NCBI GenBank assembly: GCA_913775595.1
Contig: CAJYLB010000001.1
Location: 682,001-746,000, forward strand
DNA from: an uncultured Aquiluna sp.
GTDB lineage: Bacteria; Actinomycetota; Actinomycetes; Actinomycetales; Microbacteriaceae
Length of the DNA stretch: 64,000 nucleotides
Reading direction: 5' to 3'
This document shows, in pieces, positions 25,609 through 45,392 of the stretch. Every line of letters starts with the position of its first letter. Position 1 is the stretch's first letter. The position numbers were made by a program, and so were the translations under genes. The notes beneath the pieces are model-generated. The model did not search any database. It was given only the letters and a program-made list of their open reading frames with translations, and was not told where the DNA came from.

Positions 25609-26237
25609 AAAAGACCCAGGTCTTTACTAAGAATCTTTTCGAGCCAGCTGGTCCTGTGGTGCGGCGATGGCCCTAGCGATTGAATCGCAGCTATGTGCGA
25701 GGGTGAGCTGTAGCCCTTGTTCGAATCCCAACCGTATTCAGGAAAGTCCTTTGCGAGCTCCGTCATGATGGCGTCTCGTTCCACCTTGGCGACAATCGAT
25801 GCTGCAGCAACACTGCCGCAGTCTCTGTCCGCTTTGGTTTTCACAACCACCCGCATCCCAACATTTCCGAGCCAGTTGTGTGACCCGTCTAGGAGGACAA
25901 TTGCATCTTCAAATTTGAGCTTGTCTAGAGCCTGTAAAGCTGCATGTCTGAGTGCAAAGTTGATACCTTTTTCCTCGATCACTGATACATCTGACAGTCC
26001 GATGGCGCTGACACCCCAAGCCCTAACCTCGTCTGCCGCTTCCATGCGCTTTGCTTCGGCAATAAGTTTTGAGTCTCTAACCGTTTCAGGTTGAGAATCC
26101 AAGAGGTCTGGGGTTAGAAGGAAGGCTCCAACCCCAACTGGACCTGCTAGTGCTCCCCTGCCAACCTCATCGATGCCAATAATGGCCAAGCTGTCATCGA
26201 GCAGCGACCGCTCAAAGTCAAGGGTTGGGTACGTCAA
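25605..26237 (-). CDS. rnhB: Ribonuclease HII
   Basis: GIDEVGRGALAGPV, RDSK, LLDG, VAAASIVAKVERD, NKGY. Confidence 0.95.
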   Translation of the reverse strand: MTYPTLDFERSLLDDSLAIIGIDEVGRGALAGPVGVGAFLLTPDLLDSQPETVRDSKLIAEAKRMEAADEVRAWGVSAIGLSDVSVIEEKGINFALRHAALQALDKLKFEDAIVLLDGSHNWLGNVGMRVVVKTKADRDCGSVAAASIVAKVERDAIMTELAKDFPEYGWDSNKGYSSPSHIAAIQSLGPSPHHRTSWLEKILSKDLGLF

Positions 26238-26967
26238 TGAAAGTCTCTGGGTGGTTTGTCAAGAGCTCCCAGTTTTCAACTGGCCAGCTCACTACAAAAG
26301 CTCTTCCTACAACAACCTCGATAGGAACAAAGCCTTTTGTGGGGAGGTCTTGGTGATACCTCGAATCCGTGGAATTTGGTCTGTTGTCGCCCATGACCCA
26401 GAAGTGGCCTTCCGGAACAACCACATCAAACTCGAGCTCCGATGCAGCTGCATCACCTCGAATGTAGGGCTCGTCAATCGATACGCCATTGATGCTGAGC
26501 CTTCCATCCGCGTCGCAACAAACCACTCGATCACCCGGCAGACCTATCACTCTTTTCACGAGGTGCTCTGCGGAGTCTGGAGCCGTTATGCCAAAGGTCC
26601 CGAGAACGAAGTCGGTGATTTCGGTCAGTGTGTCCTTCTCTTGGGTAGGAATAGCTCCGAGCCAGCCACCAGGGTCTCTAAAAACCGCTACGTCACCTCT
26701 TTCGAGGGGCATAACCTCAGGCGCGAGGACATTCACAATGATTCGGTCGTTTATCTCAAGCGTGTCGAGCATTGACCCAGAGGGTATGAAAAAGCTTCGA
26801 ATTAGAAACGCCTTGATGACTACAGAGAGGACGAGTGCAGTTCCAACAATGACCGTGAAGTCAATCAGGAAGCTCAGAAAAGCGTTCTTGCGGGCTCGCC
26901 GAAATGATCTGCGCCAACGCGCGGATAGTGAATTACTGCGGGGTCTGCGACTCCCGGATAACGACAT
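26218..26967 (-). CDS. lepB: Signal peptidase I
   Basis: IPSGSM catalytic Ser, LVKRVIGLPGD, MGDNRPNSTDSRY. Confidence 0.95.
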   Translation of the reverse strand: MSLSGSRRPRSNSLSARWRRSFRRARKNAFLSFLIDFTVIVGTALVLSVVIKAFLIRSFFIPSGSMLDTLEINDRIIVNVLAPEVMPLERGDVAVFRDPGGWLGAIPTQEKDTLTEITDFVLGTFGITAPDSAEHLVKRVIGLPGDRVVCCDADGRLSINGVSIDEPYIRGDAAASELEFDVVVPEGHFWVMGDNRPNSTDSRYHQDLPTKGFVPIEVVVGRAFVVSWPVENWELLTNHPETFIDVPNP

Positions 26968-38637: not shown

Positions 38638-40260
38638 TTACTGTTTCCGCCTTAGTGGGTCAGGAATTGGCACAGCTTGGATTAGGCGCCGAGTGTAGTC
38701 AACAGCTGGATTCCTAAGAATTTGGTCTTTATCCCCTTGCTCAACGATCTCTCCGAGACGCATCACAGCGATACGGTCACTGAGGAGGTCCACTACCGCT
38801 AGGTCATGAGAAATGAACAGCGTTGCGAACTGTTGTTCTCGTTGAATCTCCTGAAGCAGCTCAAGCACTCGAGCTTGAACTGAAACATCAAGTGCACTGG
38901 TGGGCTCATCTGCAACTAAGAGCTTCGGGCTTAGCGCAAGTGCTCTGGCGATTCCAACGCGTTGGCGCTGGCCTCCCGAAAGTTCATGAGGATAACGGTT
39001 TCGGTAGCTCCTGGGGAGCTCCACCAGGTCAAGCAGCTCACTCACCCGATTAGTTCTGGCAGGTGAGTCCCAACCGGCAAGCAGCAGCGGTTCAGCAATC
39101 GACTGGCCGATGGGCCAACGGGGGTTCAAAGAGCTTCCCGGGTCCTGGAAAACAATGCCGATGTTGCGACGGACATCAATCAGCTGCTGCTTCGAAACCC
39201 CCACCATCGCCTGACCGTCAACCGAGAGCTCGCCACTCTTAATTGGAAGAAGGCCAACAACCGCCCTACCTATGGTGGTCTTTCCAGAACCAGACTCCCC
39301 CACCAGGCCAAGGACTTCACCTGGGTAGATATCCAAGTCGGCATCCTTGACGGCCAAAAACGCAGGAACTTTGCCCCGTTTGGGGTATTCGATGTTGAGT
39401 CCCCGCATGCGAAGCACAGGCTGTTCAGACTCTTTGCGCTCAACAACAGGCTTGGTCTCCGCGGCACCCAATTTGGGAACGGCAGCCAGTAGGTCCTTGG
39501 TGTATTGATGCTTGGGGGTCTTGAAAACGTCGAAGGTGGTGCCAGTCTCAACAACTACACCGTCCTTCATGACAATCATGAAGTCACTCAGTTCAGCAAC
39601 AACACCCATGTCATGGGTAATGAGAATCACCGCAGAATTTAGGCGCTTGTTGAGGTCTCGCATGAGGTTCAAAATTTCGGCTTGCACTGTGACATCTAGA
39701 GCCGTAGTCGGTTCATCTGCGATGAGCAGCTGCGGGTCACAGGAGATGCTCTGAGCAATCATGGCTCGTTGGCGCTGACCACCAGAAAGCTCGTGAGGGT
39801 AGGAGTTGAAGGCCTTTTCTGGATCTGGAAGTTCAACCATCTTCAATAGCTCCAGAGCCCTTACTTTGCCCTGGGCTTTGGTCATCGACTTGAAGTGGAC
39901 CTGCAAAGCCTCAACAATCTGGAAACCAACGGTGTAAACGGGGTTTAACGCCGTCATCGGCTCTTGGAAGATGACGGCTATCTCCTTACCCCGAATCTCG
40001 CGAAGCCGCTTCTTGTCTGCTCCAATTAGCTCCTCACCCTGCAGCTTCACAGAACCCGAAGCCCTTCCGTTGACCGGCAGAAGGCCCAAAAGACTCATCG
40101 CGGATGTCGACTTACCGGAGCCAGATTCACCCACTATTGCAAGCACATCCCCCGGCTTCACACTGAAGTTGACGCCGCTGGCGGCAACCACCCATTCGCC
40201 ATCAACCCAGAAATCAACTGATAGTTCGCTGGCCTGAATTATTGGCCTTGAGTTTTCCAT
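38638..40260 (-). CDS. Peptide ABC transporter ATPase, fused OppD/OppF type
   Basis: Two NBDs (GESGSGKS and GESGSGKT, YPHELSGGQRQR twice, ADEPT). Confidence 0.93.
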   Translation of the reverse strand: MENSRPIIQASELSVDFWVDGEWVVAASGVNFSVKPGDVLAIVGESGSGKSTSAMSLLGLLPVNGRASGSVKLQGEELIGADKKRLREIRGKEIAVIFQEPMTALNPVYTVGFQIVEALQVHFKSMTKAQGKVRALELLKMVELPDPEKAFNSYPHELSGGQRQRAMIAQSISCDPQLLIADEPTTALDVTVQAEILNLMRDLNKRLNSAVILITHDMGVVAELSDFMIVMKDGVVVETGTTFDVFKTPKHQYTKDLLAAVPKLGAAETKPVVERKESEQPVLRMRGLNIEYPKRGKVPAFLAVKDADLDIYPGEVLGLVGESGSGKTTIGRAVVGLLPIKSGELSVDGQAMVGVSKQQLIDVRRNIGIVFQDPGSSLNPRWPIGQSIAEPLLLAGWDSPARTNRVSELLDLVELPRSYRNRYPHELSGGQRQRVGIARALALSPKLLVADEPTSALDVSVQARVLELLQEIQREQQFATLFISHDLAVVDLLSDRIAVMRLGEIVEQGDKDQILRNPAVDYTRRLIQAVPIPDPLRRKQ

Positions 40261-40298
40261 TAGCTCAAAACCTCCCTTGGCCGTGAAAGACTTCTAGG

Positions 40299-40865
40299 GT
40301 GCAGGTGTTCAGATCCCGTTCCGGCAGGGCCATAGCGATGGCGACTGCGGTAATCATGATCACCGCTTTGGGCGTGATATTCGTAAGCGAAGGAATCGCT
40401 GCAGCGCTTCTCTCGCTTCCGGCAGCCGCCTTGATAATCGCCATAGCTCTGCTTTTGTTCTGGTTTCCAAGGGTCGAAGTGAGTGACGGCGGAGTCAAGA
40501 TCGTCAACGTTTTCCGAGAGCACATGATTGGCTGGGGAGCGATTCGACTCATTGACACCCGTTGGGCTCTTGCAATCACCACTGACAAGGGCAAAATTAC
40601 TGCCTGGGGAGCGCCTGCCCCGGGGCGACACAGCAGCATCTTCGCCTCCCGCGACCAGGGCCAACATCTCCCCGAGAGCACCTACATTGCCGGAACCGTT
40701 AGACCGGGTGATTTGGTTACCAGTGATTCGGGAGCCGCTGCCGCACATATCAGAAGAATCTGGGAGCAAAACAGAGATGGCGAGGCTCAGGTGGCGAGTA
40801 AGTGGAACGTCGGCAAGGTTGTGGTGCTTGCCGTTGTCCTCATAGTTTCGGGGCTTAGTTTCTAG
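40299..40865 (+). CDS. Membrane protein with bacterial PH domain, antisense within the opp operon
   Basis: Two N-terminal TMs, PRVEVSDGGVKIVNVFREHMIGW, C-terminal TM; start may be GTG 40305. Confidence 0.75.
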   Translation: MQVFRSRSGRAIAMATAVIMITALGVIFVSEGIAAALLSLPAAALIIAIALLLFWFPRVEVSDGGVKIVNVFREHMIGWGAIRLIDTRWALAITTDKGKITAWGAPAPGRHSSIFASRDQGQHLPESTYIAGTVRPGDLVTSDSGAAAAHIRRIWEQNRDGEAQVASKWNVGKVVVLAVVLIVSGLSF

Positions 40866-40867
40866 CA

Positions 40868-41953
40868 TTAGCCCTCCCGACGCCTAGCAAGCAACTGCCT
40901 TAGCTCAGCGATGGCTCCACCGGACTTTGGAAGCCTTCTTTGACGCGGATCAAAAGCATCTCGTAATCCGTCACCGATGAAGTTGATGCAAAGTGCAATC
41001 ACAACAATGAACAAGCCCGGATACCAGAACAGCCACGGCCTGGTCCTAAATGCCTCGTTGTATTCACTAATTATCTGGCCAAGAGAAATATCAGGAGCCA
41101 CAATTCCGAAACCGAGGAAGCTCAGTGACGTCTCAATTAAGATCGCGGCAGCCATCAACAGCGTGGCATTCACCACAATTACGCCGATGGTGTTCGGCAG
41201 GATGTGCTTAAAGATGATTCTTGAGTTCTTTGCCCCAGCAACTCGAGCCGCGTCTACAAACTCTCGCTCCCTGAGGGCCAAGAACTCGGCCCTCACAAGC
41301 CTCGCAAGACCGGTCCAAGCCAGTGCACCAAGTAACAGCGCAAGACTCACAGCGTCCCCTCCGAAGTTGCGGCTCAGCACAGCACCTACAACCAAAATTG
41401 GGAGAATGATTACAACATCGGTGGCACGCATCAAAAGCGTGTCAAGCCAGCCGCGGAAGTAGCCAGCGAGAGCGCCAACAATAGTTCCGATGACAGTTGA
41501 AAGCAGCCCAACGATAAACACCACGATCAGGGACTGCTGAATACCGCGCATGACCCGGGCGAAGATGTCCTTACCGAGGGTGTCCTGACCGAACGGGTGC
41601 TGGCCGGGATCAAAGGGCCACATGGTCAGCGTGGGAGTGCCGCCAGGGTTATAGATGTCATAGTTCTCATACCAGTTCAGTGGCCACCAACCTGGAATCC
41701 TGAACCCGTCGATTGCCAGCTTGCCAGTGTTGGGGTCAGTGACCAGGTTCCCCGAGCCACCTACAACCGTTCCCACTGATGTGAAGGCAAGCAGCGTAAT
41801 CGCTCCCAAAATCACCATCGAGATAACAGCAGCCTTGTGCCTAAAGAACCGGCGTCGAACGATAGTCCCGAGTGATAGACCCTCTGTCTCGCGCTGCTCA
41901 ATGGTGATCTCGCGATTCAGCTGAGTCTCGTCAACCGGTCTCTTCTTGGCCAT
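40868..41953 (-). CDS. Peptide ABC transporter permease (OppC/DppC)
   Basis: HPFGQDTLGKD, EFVDAARVAGA EAA loop, HILPN, NFIGDGLRDAFDPR. Confidence 0.93.
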   Translation of the reverse strand: MAKKRPVDETQLNREITIEQRETEGLSLGTIVRRRFFRHKAAVISMVILGAITLLAFTSVGTVVGGSGNLVTDPNTGKLAIDGFRIPGWWPLNWYENYDIYNPGGTPTLTMWPFDPGQHPFGQDTLGKDIFARVMRGIQQSLIVVFIVGLLSTVIGTIVGALAGYFRGWLDTLLMRATDVVIILPILVVGAVLSRNFGGDAVSLALLLGALAWTGLARLVRAEFLALREREFVDAARVAGAKNSRIIFKHILPNTIGVIVVNATLLMAAAILIETSLSFLGFGIVAPDISLGQIISEYNEAFRTRPWLFWYPGLFIVVIALCINFIGDGLRDAFDPRQRRLPKSGGAIAELRQLLARRREG

Positions 41954-43497
41954 TAGCTAATCCTGATTCTCGGGTCGAGGGCTGAATATAGAAGGTCAGC
42001 AATCACGTTACCGATTACCGCCATAAGCCCAACGATCATGACGTAGCCCATGACAAGGTTCACATCAACTGCATTCAAGCCTCGTATAAACAGCGCACCC
42101 ATACCCGCCCAAGCAAAGACCTGTTCGGTAATGACGGCGCCACCGATCAATGCTGTGATGTCCACGGGCACGATGGTCGCAATTGGAAGTAGGGCATTGC
42201 GCATGGCGTGACGAACCACAACCGTGCGCTCGTTGAGGCCCTTAGCCCTAGCGGTTCGCACGTAATCCTGGTTCATCACATCAAGAAGCGAGGCCCTCGA
42301 GTAACGGGTGTAGCCGGCAACGGAAATAATCAACAGCGCGGCCGTAGGAAGAATCAGATGAGCGTAAGAGTCGATGAGGCTTAGCCACATGTTCTCCTGA
42401 CGCTTGATGGCAGGAGTAACCGCACCAATGGTCGAGATGTAGCCATTGTTTAGAGGGATAAGGCTTAGGTATTCAGACCAGTACTGCAGGGCCTCGTCGA
42501 TTGCCATAATCACACCTGCAAGGGCCCCGGTGACACCTGCCGCGCGAGCAATCTCCTTGCGGCCATCTCCTCCGAATAGCAGTGCCAACAAAACTCCAAG
42601 CGCCGCCATTATTAGGACAATAAGCAAGATTCCCAGCGGGCCCTGGACATAGAAGAAGAGGTACTGGCCAGGGAGCCACATCGCACCAGCAACCAAAGCC
42701 ATTCCCAGGACAATGATCAGCCCACGACGTTGATTGAAGCCAATTGACAACACCAGTACAACGCTCGCAACAAGCAGGGTCATCATGATGATGCCTGGAA
42801 CGCCTAGCGCTGGGTACTTGAGCCACTGGGTGACGTTGAGGAAAATCATCACAACGACAGACAGAACCACTCCCCCGATAAAGCTTTGTACGCGCGATCT
42901 GAGTCCACCGCCCACGATCCCACTCACGGCAATACCGAGAAGCAGCGCAATTACCGTCATGGCCCCAGGGGGAATGTATGGCTCCTCCAAGAACCTATTG
43001 AACTGAATGGCTCCAAACTCCTTGAGCAGAACGGCAACCCAGAAGATTGGAAGCGAGTAAAAAATGAATGCAAAGAATGTGACGGTGTAGTCGTAGCCGG
43101 AGTACTGCCTTAGAGCAGTGGTCATACCAATTGCAACACCGATGATGATCGAAAGAATCGTGGCCAGCGTGATTAGCTGAACCGTCGAGGCAATTGCTCC
43201 CGAGAGGGCCTCAGTGACTGGGATCTCGCCACGAGATATGGAAATACCTAAGTCGCACTGGCCTATTAGGCAACCCGCCGCGCCACCAAGCCAGTAGAAG
43301 TAGCGAATAAATGGTGGAATATCGAGCTGAAGAATCTCGGTGAGGTATTGAATCTTGAATTGAATGTCGGGATCCCGCGAGCCTCTGAGCTCAAGCAATG
43401 GATCTCCAGATATGGCAGTCAGCTGGTAAACAATGAACGAAGCGACAAGCAACACCATCAAGGTTGCCGCAGCCCTGCGCACAATGAAACTCAGCAT
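41953..43497 (-). CDS. Peptide ABC transporter permease (OppB/DppB) with extra TM insert
   Basis: DYVRTARAKGL, HAMRNALLP, ITEQVFAWAGMG, DLLYSALDPRI; 514 aa. Confidence 0.92.
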   Translation of the reverse strand: MLSFIVRRAAATLMVLLVASFIVYQLTAISGDPLLELRGSRDPDIQFKIQYLTEILQLDIPPFIRYFYWLGGAAGCLIGQCDLGISISRGEIPVTEALSGAIASTVQLITLATILSIIIGVAIGMTTALRQYSGYDYTVTFFAFIFYSLPIFWVAVLLKEFGAIQFNRFLEEPYIPPGAMTVIALLLGIAVSGIVGGGLRSRVQSFIGGVVLSVVVMIFLNVTQWLKYPALGVPGIIMMTLLVASVVLVLSIGFNQRRGLIIVLGMALVAGAMWLPGQYLFFYVQGPLGILLIVLIMAALGVLLALLFGGDGRKEIARAAGVTGALAGVIMAIDEALQYWSEYLSLIPLNNGYISTIGAVTPAIKRQENMWLSLIDSYAHLILPTAALLIISVAGYTRYSRASLLDVMNQDYVRTARAKGLNERTVVVRHAMRNALLPIATIVPVDITALIGGAVITEQVFAWAGMGALFIRGLNAVDVNLVMGYVMIVGLMAVIGNVIADLLYSALDPRIRIS

Positions 43498-43574: not shown

Positions 43575-45392
43575 TTAGCCCGCGGTTGGGGTCCAATCCC
43601 AGAAGTTCCAGAAGTAGTAAGGAACTAGCAGGGATGGGTCCACGCCCGTGACTGAGTTGTCCCACCAGGTCAGACCCGGGAACTGGAAGATAGTGATGTT
43701 GTACGCGTCCTTAGCGAGGTTTTCCTCAATTGCCAGACGGATACGCAACTGGTCTTCCTTGTTCACGGCTACGTTGAGCTCTTCTAGAAGAGCGTCAACC
43801 TCTGGGTTGTCGTAACCGGTCCAGTTGGATGGTCCACCCAAGGTCAGGTACTGGTCGTCACCGGACACTGCCAGTGAGGTTGCAGCCCAAGCAAAGATGG
43901 TTGCATCGTGTGGGTTTACCTCTGGGTATACCTTGCCGGTGAACTCCCAGTTTGGCTCGTCGTCCTGGATGACGTTGAAGCCTACCGAGTCAGCCGAGGT
44001 CTTGATGAGCTCGAACTCGTTGGTACGACGAACGTTTCCAGTTGGGAACCAGAACTTCACATCGATAGGAGTGGACACGCCAGCCTCTGCAAGCAGCTGC
44101 TTTGCCATCTCGCGGTTCTCGTCATCGGTGCCGAGGTACATCGAGTAGTAGCTCTCCGCGGTGTCATAGCCCTCAGAACCAGGAACGAACAGTACCGAGG
44201 TACGGAGCTTCGCGGTTGGGTTCAGTGGCTTGATGATCTTCTCGATGATCTCGTTACGTGGTACCGAGAGCAGGAATGCCTGACGAACCTTCAGAGCGGT
44301 CTCCTCGTCGCCACCGTAGCTGGCAGGGTCGAATGGACCACCGTTGTTCTGGGACAGGTCAACGTGCTCGTATGCAGCCTCTTCAGAAGATGCGTAGCTT
44401 GCGTTGGCTAGACCCTGAACGAGCTGCAGCACGTCAGCGGTTGGCTGGCCGGATGCAATCTGAACCTCACCGTTGTCAACAGCCTGGATAGCGGCGGTTG
44501 AGTCAGCGATCTGACGGATGGTGATGCGCTCGTACTTTGGCTTTGGACCCCAGTTGTAGAGCGGGTTCACAACGTGGGTTGAGTACTGCTCCTCCACGAG
44601 CTCCTCAAGGACGTATGGTCCAGATGAGAGGTAGACAAGTGGGTTGTCAGGGGTGTTAGGGAACTGGTAACCGTTGTTCCAGACATCAGCAACGGCTGCA
44701 ACGAACTCGTCGTCACCGTTGTAAACGGCGTCGATCAGAGCCTGCTTAGCAGCGGCTGGGTCGGTGATGTCGGAATGGGCCATCATTACAGTTCCGTGGG
44801 CTGCAACGCCAACGCCAAACTGTAGCTCCCAGTCAACGTACTGAACGTCGTACTCGAAGGTGATGGAGTTTCCGTCAATCTCCGGAAGCTTTGATGCGAG
44901 GGTGTCCTTTGGTGCAGCGTGCGAGAACATGTAGCTGCCATCTTCGTTCTTGTAGTAACCGAAGGTGGAGATCCATGCAAGCAGCATGTCGGCGCCGTCA
45001 ATCTGGGTGCCATCTGACCAAACAACACCGTCATTGATGGTGTACTTCACGGTCAGTGGGTCTTCAACCACAATCTCGTATGTACCAAAATCGGTGTTCT
45101 GAACCAGTGCGGGATCGTTGTTGTAGTAGCTGAAGCCCGAGCCGGTTAGGTAGGCGGTTAGCGAGTTGGCAACGTTGTTACCAGCTGCAGTTGAACCGTT
45201 GAAGTGATCAACGATGTCGTTCCAACCTACGGTGATTTGTGGAGCGAGGTCCTCGTACCACTCAAGAGTGGTCTCAGGGTCGCTCGTTGCGCTCTGGGTT
45301 GGGGTTAGCTCCTCAGGCGCAGCACATCCAGAGATGGTTAACGCGAAAGCAGCAGCACCCGCAACAAGAGCGGATCCGCGGAATTTCTTCAT
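43575..45392 (-). CDS. Peptide ABC transporter substrate-binding lipoprotein (family 5)
   Basis: Lipobox LTISGC, VWSDGTQIDGADM, SSGPY; AAGGAG SD; strongly acidic. Confidence 0.9.
   Translation of the reverse strand: MKKFRGSALVAGAAAFALTISGCAAPEELTPTQSATSDPETTLEWYEDLAPQITVGWNDIVDHFNGSTAAGNNVANSLTAYLTGSGFSYYNNDPALVQNTDFGTYEIVVEDPLTVKYTINDGVVWSDGTQIDGADMLLAWISTFGYYKNEDGSYMFSHAAPKDTLASKLPEIDGNSITFEYDVQYVDWELQFGVGVAAHGTVMMAHSDITDPAAAKQALIDAVYNGDDEFVAAVADVWNNGYQFPNTPDNPLVYLSSGPYVLEELVEEQYSTHVVNPLYNWGPKPKYERITIRQIADSTAAIQAVDNGEVQIASGQPTADVLQLVQGLANASYASSEEAAYEHVDLSQNNGGPFDPASYGGDEETALKVRQAFLLSVPRNEIIEKIIKPLNPTAKLRTSVLFVPGSEGYDTAESYYSMYLGTDDENREMAKQLLAEAGVSTPIDVKFWFPTGNVRRTNEFELIKTSADSVGFNVIQDDEPNWEFTGKVYPEVNPHDATIFAWAATSLAVSGDDQYLTLGGPSNWTGYDNPEVDALLEELNVAVNKEDQLRIRLAIEENLAKDAYNITIFQFPGLTWWDNSVTGVDPSLLVPYYFWNFWDWTPTAG

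Follow-up and report, generated by a model that had tools for sequence, protein, structure and literature searches.

Noncontiguous operons, in which a gene on the opposite strand lies among linked co-directional genes, have been mapped in Staphylococcus aureus (Iturbe et al., 2024, PMC11034616) and in D. dadantii, where 83 such units were reported (PMC9239193). In its passages on these operons, the S. aureus atlas notes that they cross untranslated regions, describes this as intriguing, and attributes it to runaway transcription in Gram-positives; actinobacteria are not among the runaway phyla in the list given by PMC13323073. The main-text passages of the D. dadantii map do not mention an open reading frame (ORF) that bridges the gap. 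Here we describe a locus of this kind in a 64,000-nucleotide (nt) stretch of DNA (hereafter the window) from an uncultured Aquiluna sp. of the Microbacteriaceae (contig CAJYLB010000001.1, positions 682,001 to 746,000). A plus-strand gene for a membrane protein with a bacterial pleckstrin homology (PH) domain is located between the minus-strand genes oppC and oppD/F, and the minus strand opposite this gene carries a 202-codon ORF, which we call the bridge, that overlaps the stop codon of oppC at its beginning and the start codon of oppD/F at its end.

As in the S. aureus and D. dadantii operons (PMC11034616, PMC9239193, in the parts cited), an opposite-strand gene that apparently has its own promoter resides amid functionally related co-directional genes, and we find the same order in 187 loci. 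Co-transcription has been demonstrated in those operons and is only inferred at this locus. Unlike the crossed regions discussed in the S. aureus atlas, the region crossed here carries an ORF that is selected for openness and is coupled at both ends. A search of article listings and abstracts, covering few subscription papers, turned up no account of this locus or of a comparable bridge. The parts of the locus are as follows, with the names oppA to oppD used as our labels for the Pfam families matched.

43575..45392, minus strand: oppA-type solute-binding protein, family 5, 605 amino acids (aa) (ORF list; Pfam PF00496)
41953..43497, minus strand: oppB-type permease, 514 aa, with a TAATG overlap with oppC (ORF list, Pfam)
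40868..41953, minus strand: oppC-type permease, 361 aa (ORF list; Pfam PF00528, PF12911)
40872..40878, minus strand: GGGAGGG resembling a Shine-Dalgarno (SD) sequence, within the final oppC codons and 3 nt ahead of the bridge ATG (sequence)
40866..40870, minus strand: entry junction TAATG, in which the oppC stop and the bridge ATG share a base (sequence)
40260..40868, minus strand: bridge ORF, 202 codons, grand average of hydropathy (GRAVY) -0.86, no Pfam match and no predicted fold (ORF list, Pfam, AlphaFold)
40299..40865, plus strand: PH gene, membrane protein with a bacterial PH domain (bPH_6), 188 aa, three long helices (Pfam, AlphaFold)
40287..40292, plus strand: putative -10 element AAGACT, located 6 nt upstream of the PH start (sequence)
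40271..40276, minus strand: SD GGGAGG of oppD/F, within the final bridge codons (sequence)
40258..40262, minus strand: exit junction TAATG, in which the bridge TAA and the oppD/F ATG share a base (sequence)
38638..40260, minus strand: fused oppD/F ATPase with two ATP-binding cassette domains, 540 aa (ORF list, Pfam)

A first-pass annotation made from the letters of the window alone had pointed out the minus-strand ORF with TAATG at both ends, and the sequence and the ORF list agree with it on this point; the same pentanucleotide that it saw at other real junctions is present at oppB/oppC and smc/ftsY. It was also correct that the bridge frame is codon-aligned to the PH gene and that this gene avoids TTA, CTA and TCA, the codons that would place stops in the bridge (anti-stops), with 0 among 29 leucine and serine codons. 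The codon-aligned antisense frame is, however, the frame most often open. Given the codon usage of this genome (54.7% GC; 13.8 CTA, 12.2 TCA and 2.2 TTA per thousand codons), the probability that 188 codons are free of all three, a calculation the annotation had proposed, is about 0.005. In the genome itself, 7 of 1032 windows of equal length lack these codons, and the codon-aligned antisense frame is open in 2 of 971 called genes of at least 150 aa. Among 127 single genes nested on the opposite strand, one is spanned by a frame that is coupled at each end. The two counts of genes rely on our own gene caller (1189 genes), which missed some small genes. A scan for other bridge candidates in the genome gave 22 rows, and the four that came near to coupling at both ends proved on inspection to be three ordinary missed genes and one chance-open frame. 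Evidence from the single genome for a frame that is not open by chance is only suggestive, and it is the relatives that make the case decisive. The other of the two genes with an open codon-aligned antisense frame is a minus-strand gene of 185 codons at window positions 26218-26772 (G000:C1:708218-708772).

Of 61 relatives, 42 have a PH homologue, as do 146 of 301 genomes of the family and 192 of 401 of the order; 59 named loci have one as well. A portion of these, picked by score and family spread and not by any feature of the bridge, was used for comparison. Removal of identical genes left 234 rows, and 230 remained once four rows of two loci with frameshifted PH genes (L019, L131) had been dropped. 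The gene order oppC, antisense PH, oppD is present in 187 of these loci, drawn from eight coded families of the order, and 183 of the 187 are bridged by an ORF of 183-274 codons that starts between -8 and +12 from the oppC stop and remains open past the PH start. Among the 180 loci in which this ORF is codon-aligned, the PH genes contain 0 anti-stops, whereas about 360 are expected from the codons of the flanking opp genes; for 104 representatives under 60% identity the numbers are 0 observed versus 159-173 expected. The same model is well calibrated for 43 PH genes outside the nested order, where 81 anti-stops are seen and 73 are expected. These loci are kin rather than independent samples, and high-GC loci are often free of anti-stops by chance, such that 70.7 of 180 loci would be expected to show zero, in comparison to 180 of 180 observed. 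Loci of 49-55% GC nonetheless expect 5-11 anti-stops each and also have none. On these comparative data, the bridge frame is real, ancient and under selection. The annotation's caveat that the frame might be open by chance does not hold here, and the comparison it had suggested came out in favor of its ribosome-relay reading, in that 183 of 187 loci retain the frame with its two junctions while the peptide drifts and even switches frame.

The two junctions are conserved in geometry rather than in letters. The bridge starts at -4 relative to the oppC stop in 89 loci and at -1 in 55 (144 of 183), with 26 more at 0 to +2, whereas a start at -4 or -1 occurs at only 19 of 332 convergent gene ends of this genome. 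At the other end, the bridge overlaps the oppD start by 4 nt in 108 loci and by 1 nt in 30 (138 of 183); it abuts the start in 9 loci and extends 8-23 nt into oppD in 26. These counts assign to oppD the in-frame start that lies closest to the bridge end. Because this choice favors small offsets, we also counted phase. Upstream spacers measure between -17 and 104 nt, and the -1/-4 phase is kept in 153 of 180 loci (25 of 43 distinct lengths); downstream spacers vary from 26 to 143 nt, and the phase is kept in 139 of 180 (34 of 55 distinct lengths). Within the downstream spacer there are 5 stops in the bridge frame versus 91 and 77 in the other two frames. TAATG, TGATG, ATGA, GTGA and TAA-TTG are used interchangeably among loci. 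Predicted SD pairing at least as strong as -4 kcal/mol is found ahead of 77% of the 183 bridge starts and 91% of the oppD starts, compared to 79% of 194 real overlapped gene pairs and 37% of 332 convergent gene ends. The annotation was right to caution that oppD/F has its own SD, yet an SD also precedes the bridge start.

Stop/start overlaps of 1 or 4 nt and an SD within the upstream ORF are among the features expected of termination-reinitiation, and the locus has both. The examined portion of the work of Huber et al. (2019, PMC6728339) describes such coupling at ATGA and TGATG overlaps with intragenic SDs, which the -4 and -1 overlaps seen here resemble. Our locus departs from that system in its middle cistron, which reads another gene in reverse complement and whose product lacks conservation.

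Exceptions to the common arrangement are informative. In three loci (L044, L274, L267) the bridge lies in another frame, moving from a start at -4 to an overlap of +4 or +8 with both junctions present, and stops in the aligned frame number 2 in L274 and 3 in L267, while in L044 this frame lacks a junction start. There was at least one frame switch, and probably two, since L044 and L274 are sisters in a quick version of the tree. The frame has been lost in three separate clades of this tree. In L011 and L016, nested among bridged members of the genus, oppA of a second operon replaces oppD after the PH gene, and 6 and 10 anti-stops are present. Six loci that form one clade of family f7 do not have oppD after the PH gene (it is on the other side of PH in five, and no oppD was seen in L227) and carry 0-7 anti-stops, while two nested loci of the same family are bridged. 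Finally, four loci of genus g132 (L249-L252) keep the gene order but have a bridge in no frame. In the three examined, L249, L251 and L252, the spacers are longer and a strong long hairpin without a T-tail directly follows the oppC stop; these features suggest that the operon has been split.

Some members of the genus possess another, divergent oppABC-PH-oppD operon that includes a PH paralogue of its own (L031, L032-L033, L034), directly in tandem with the first in L031 and L034. The first copy lacks oppD and the bridge in L031 and L032, and both copies are bridged in L034. The L031 locus is itself the second operon in a genome whose first copy has no oppD, and it comes with a separate PH gene and an open bridge.

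A control locus illustrates how a frame that is open by chance behaves. A conserved gene of 129 codons without a Pfam match (L309 2195-2630; G000:C1:145195-145630) is nested antisense between a DUF5719 gene and a phosphomannomutase gene. Its aligned antisense frame is open in this genome only and is closed in 29 of 30 loci of the genus. In all 30, a short, fixed promoter-like motif, readable as a -10 element in either orientation, is located ahead of the downstream gene.

The bridge peptide itself has few marks of a functional protein. A Pfam search with it gave no match, and an AlphaFold model built from a 34-row alignment has a predicted local distance difference test (pLDDT) score of 47 and a predicted template modeling (pTM) score of 0.13, such that neither a domain nor a fold is recognizable by these two methods. 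The only invariant residues among 34 aligned bridges are M1 and a histidine that mirrors the PH start codon, and the hydrophilic character of the peptide arises because a hydrophobic gene is read backwards. Among 24 lower-GC representatives, antisense identity for the bridge is 1.075 times a synonymous-shuffle null, compared to 1.086 and 1.074 for the corresponding shadows of oppC and oppD. The four-fold degenerate sites of the PH gene are the first codon positions of the bridge, and their divergence falls at the 41st percentile of 103 genes in the comparison with genome G017 and at the 90th of 83 genes with G012. These tests did not detect purifying selection on a bridge protein beyond, at most, a weak signal at shallow distance. 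A weak constraint on the peptide is possible, and it would be far below that on a normal protein. Taken together, the sequence comparisons show selection on openness and on both junctions, and not on the peptide. This distinguishes the locus from pop/ompA (PMC7103648) and laoB (PMC5810103) of Escherichia coli, which likewise are long ORFs fully antisense to a real gene but are argued, in the passages concerned, to encode functional proteins; the peptide described here is without deep constraint and its frame can switch.

We rejected oppC and oppD as a silent-site baseline for these tests and used genome-wide and local baselines instead. Relative to G014, four-fold sites of oppB, oppC and oppD (window 38638-43497) differ by 0.40-0.46, versus a median of 0.157 for 118 genes and 0.04 for the enclosed PH gene. 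Divergence at these sites is also greater in the opp genes than in the PH gene in most close pairs. The G014 comparison looks like a recent import of alleles that reached the opp genes and left the PH gene untouched.

The PH gene is a credible gene in its own right. Its product matches bPH_6 (PF10756, E 1.6e-6, above the cut-off) and has an AlphaFold model with pLDDT 86.7 and pTM 0.77, although a Foldseek search with this model found nothing at E<=0.001 and only weak PH-like/FERM rows. Its GTG start lines up with ATG starts in relatives. An nAnnnT element 5-7 nt before the PH start is present in 94% of 68 low-GC loci and 61% of 115 high-GC loci (12% and 7% in controls), which is consistent with a leaderless mRNA made from the gene's own promoter. 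The PH and oppC stops are convergent and 2 nt apart, and a consensus scan of the window found no terminator-like site between oppC and oppD; the PH and operon transcripts should for these reasons overlap. Consensus promoter and terminator scans of the window, L249 and L251 returned nothing above shuffles, with the limitation that the scan does not score long hairpins without a T-tail. Of 13 RNA runs, none contained half of the sequence words; strandless contigs from four of them, which carry no expression level, include one of 1812 nt from a relative in X1 that lies across oppC-PH-oppD, which is not proof of a single transcript and is not used as evidence.

Given these observations, the best reading, and one that we consider quite probable, is that the bridge serves as a translational relay, maintaining ribosome cover over a noncontiguous operon and the coupling of oppD. 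The oppABC transcript would read on through the reverse of the PH gene into oppD/F. Ribosomes that end at oppC would restart at the overlapping start of the bridge, where the SD within oppC would help them, and would read about 200 codons for a dispensable hydrophilic peptide before terminating at the start of oppD/F and initiating once more. As a likely benefit, the 600-800 nt of mRNA would never be free of ribosomes, and premature, probably Rho-dependent, termination or decay would be avoided. The single ATPase gene of the operon would also be coupled to the permeases, and because the exit junction is conserved, the data suggest that this coupling is itself selected. The bridge would act in the manner of termination-reinitiation coupling, a mechanism established in other systems, within the layout of a noncontiguous operon. 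A rho gene is present in the genome.

A related proposal has been made for an actinobacterium. In the examined part of a study of Mycobacterium tuberculosis, ORF overlaps of 1 and 4 nt go with less Rho-dependent termination (10.1101/2022.06.01.494293), and there, as in our proposal, translation via such overlaps appears to counter termination. The M. tuberculosis upstream ORFs are short leaders, whereas the bridge is an ORF of roughly 200 codons in mid-operon, over an antisense gene, and has been kept across eight families. The examined text of PMC7457138 contained no passage on Rho, coupling or stop codons.

Several observations weigh against the relay. In 10 of 183 loci the bridge ends before it reaches the oppD start, by as much as 31 nt. 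Divergence at the four-fold sites of the PH gene is in the lowest 1% of 118 genes in the comparison with G014, and over 10 close pairs these sites give 0.236 versus a local median of 0.273 (about 14% slower, p=0.049). TANNNT is modestly enriched before oppD (37% versus 19% at low GC, 14% versus 3% at high GC), and a weak internal promoter is therefore possible. The bridge strand is C-rich in this window (97th percentile of genes) but is not so across loci (mean C-G -0.013, below oppC and oppD), so composition does not support a reason specific to Rho. Furthermore, the M. tuberculosis authors, in the same part of their study, leave open whether transcription and translation are coupled in actinobacteria.

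Among other explanations, it is unlikely that the bridge exists primarily to manage a conflict between sense and antisense RNAs, with ribosomes on the operon strand blocking pairing with the leaderless PH mRNA and cleavage of the double strand, or tuning mutual repression, and with oppD coupling as a secondary matter. The necessary overlap of the two transcripts and the conserved leaderless-type promoter of the PH gene fit this proposal, and for noncontiguous operons, mutual regulation through interference or RNase III has been suggested (PMC9239193, main-text passages). Left unexplained, however, are the +4/+1 exit overlap in 138 of 183 loci and a spacer beyond the PH start that is kept free of stops in the bridge frame only. 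Such an effect is compatible with the relay as an addition to it. That the bridge is a true overlapping gene with a functional protein is very unlikely, even though it has a good start, an SD and a place in the operon, and even though the PH four-fold sites are slower in the 10 close pairs and there is an excess over oppC and oppD at shallow distance. A functional protein is difficult to reconcile with three loci in which the frame has been switched, with antisense identity at depth that matches the meaningless shadows of oppC and oppD, with unremarkable PH divergence in the G017 and G012 comparisons, and with a product that has no Pfam match, no confident model and a variable length.

It is highly improbable that a separate promoter within or close to the 5′ end of the PH gene accounts for most oppD/F transcription, with the open frame as a leftover or minor back-up. 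The strong oppD SD, the enrichment of TANNNT upstream and the one genus that has the same gene order without the bridge could all be accommodated in this way, but a leftover frame would decay, as is seen wherever the operon is split, and there is no fixed motif before oppD of the kind that the control locus has in 30 of 30 cases. There is practically no chance that the bridge is a shadow ORF opened by accident or by codon bias. Its alignment is that of the frame most often open, and zeros are common at high GC, yet the absence of anti-stops extends to every locus of 49-55% GC, the non-nested PH genes match expectation, and the real chance case is closed in nearly all of its genus. We consider this last explanation refuted by the anti-stop counts across loci and by the chance-open control locus.

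If the relay operates as proposed, the locus is a noncontiguous operon with a translated bridge. The survival of transcription over the untranslated part of such operons, an open point in the passages of the S. aureus atlas (PMC11034616), becomes directly testable; a single substitution, synonymous for the PH protein, would close the bridge. Moreover, a long ORF conserved over eight families without a conserved product is a warning against equating ORF conservation with protein function. The combination of anti-stop depletion and two overlaps also provides a genome signature for read-through operons that requires no RNA data.

We lean towards the broader view that the locus is an ancient chromosomal example of a general, unannotated class of ‘filler cistrons’. 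These would be long ORFs that are coupled to both neighbors, are selected only for their translation whatever the frame, and keep operons intact over antisense inserts in bacteria with coupled transcription and translation. If this is true, the codon choice of a housekeeping gene (no TTA, CTA or TCA) is dictated by the opposite strand, and the question of how noncontiguous operons escape polarity has an answer.

PH genes that are not nested (L039, L045, L226, L238, L279) often still adjoin opp genes, either following oppD or preceding oppA, an arrangement that hints at a functional connection between the PH membrane protein and the transporter.

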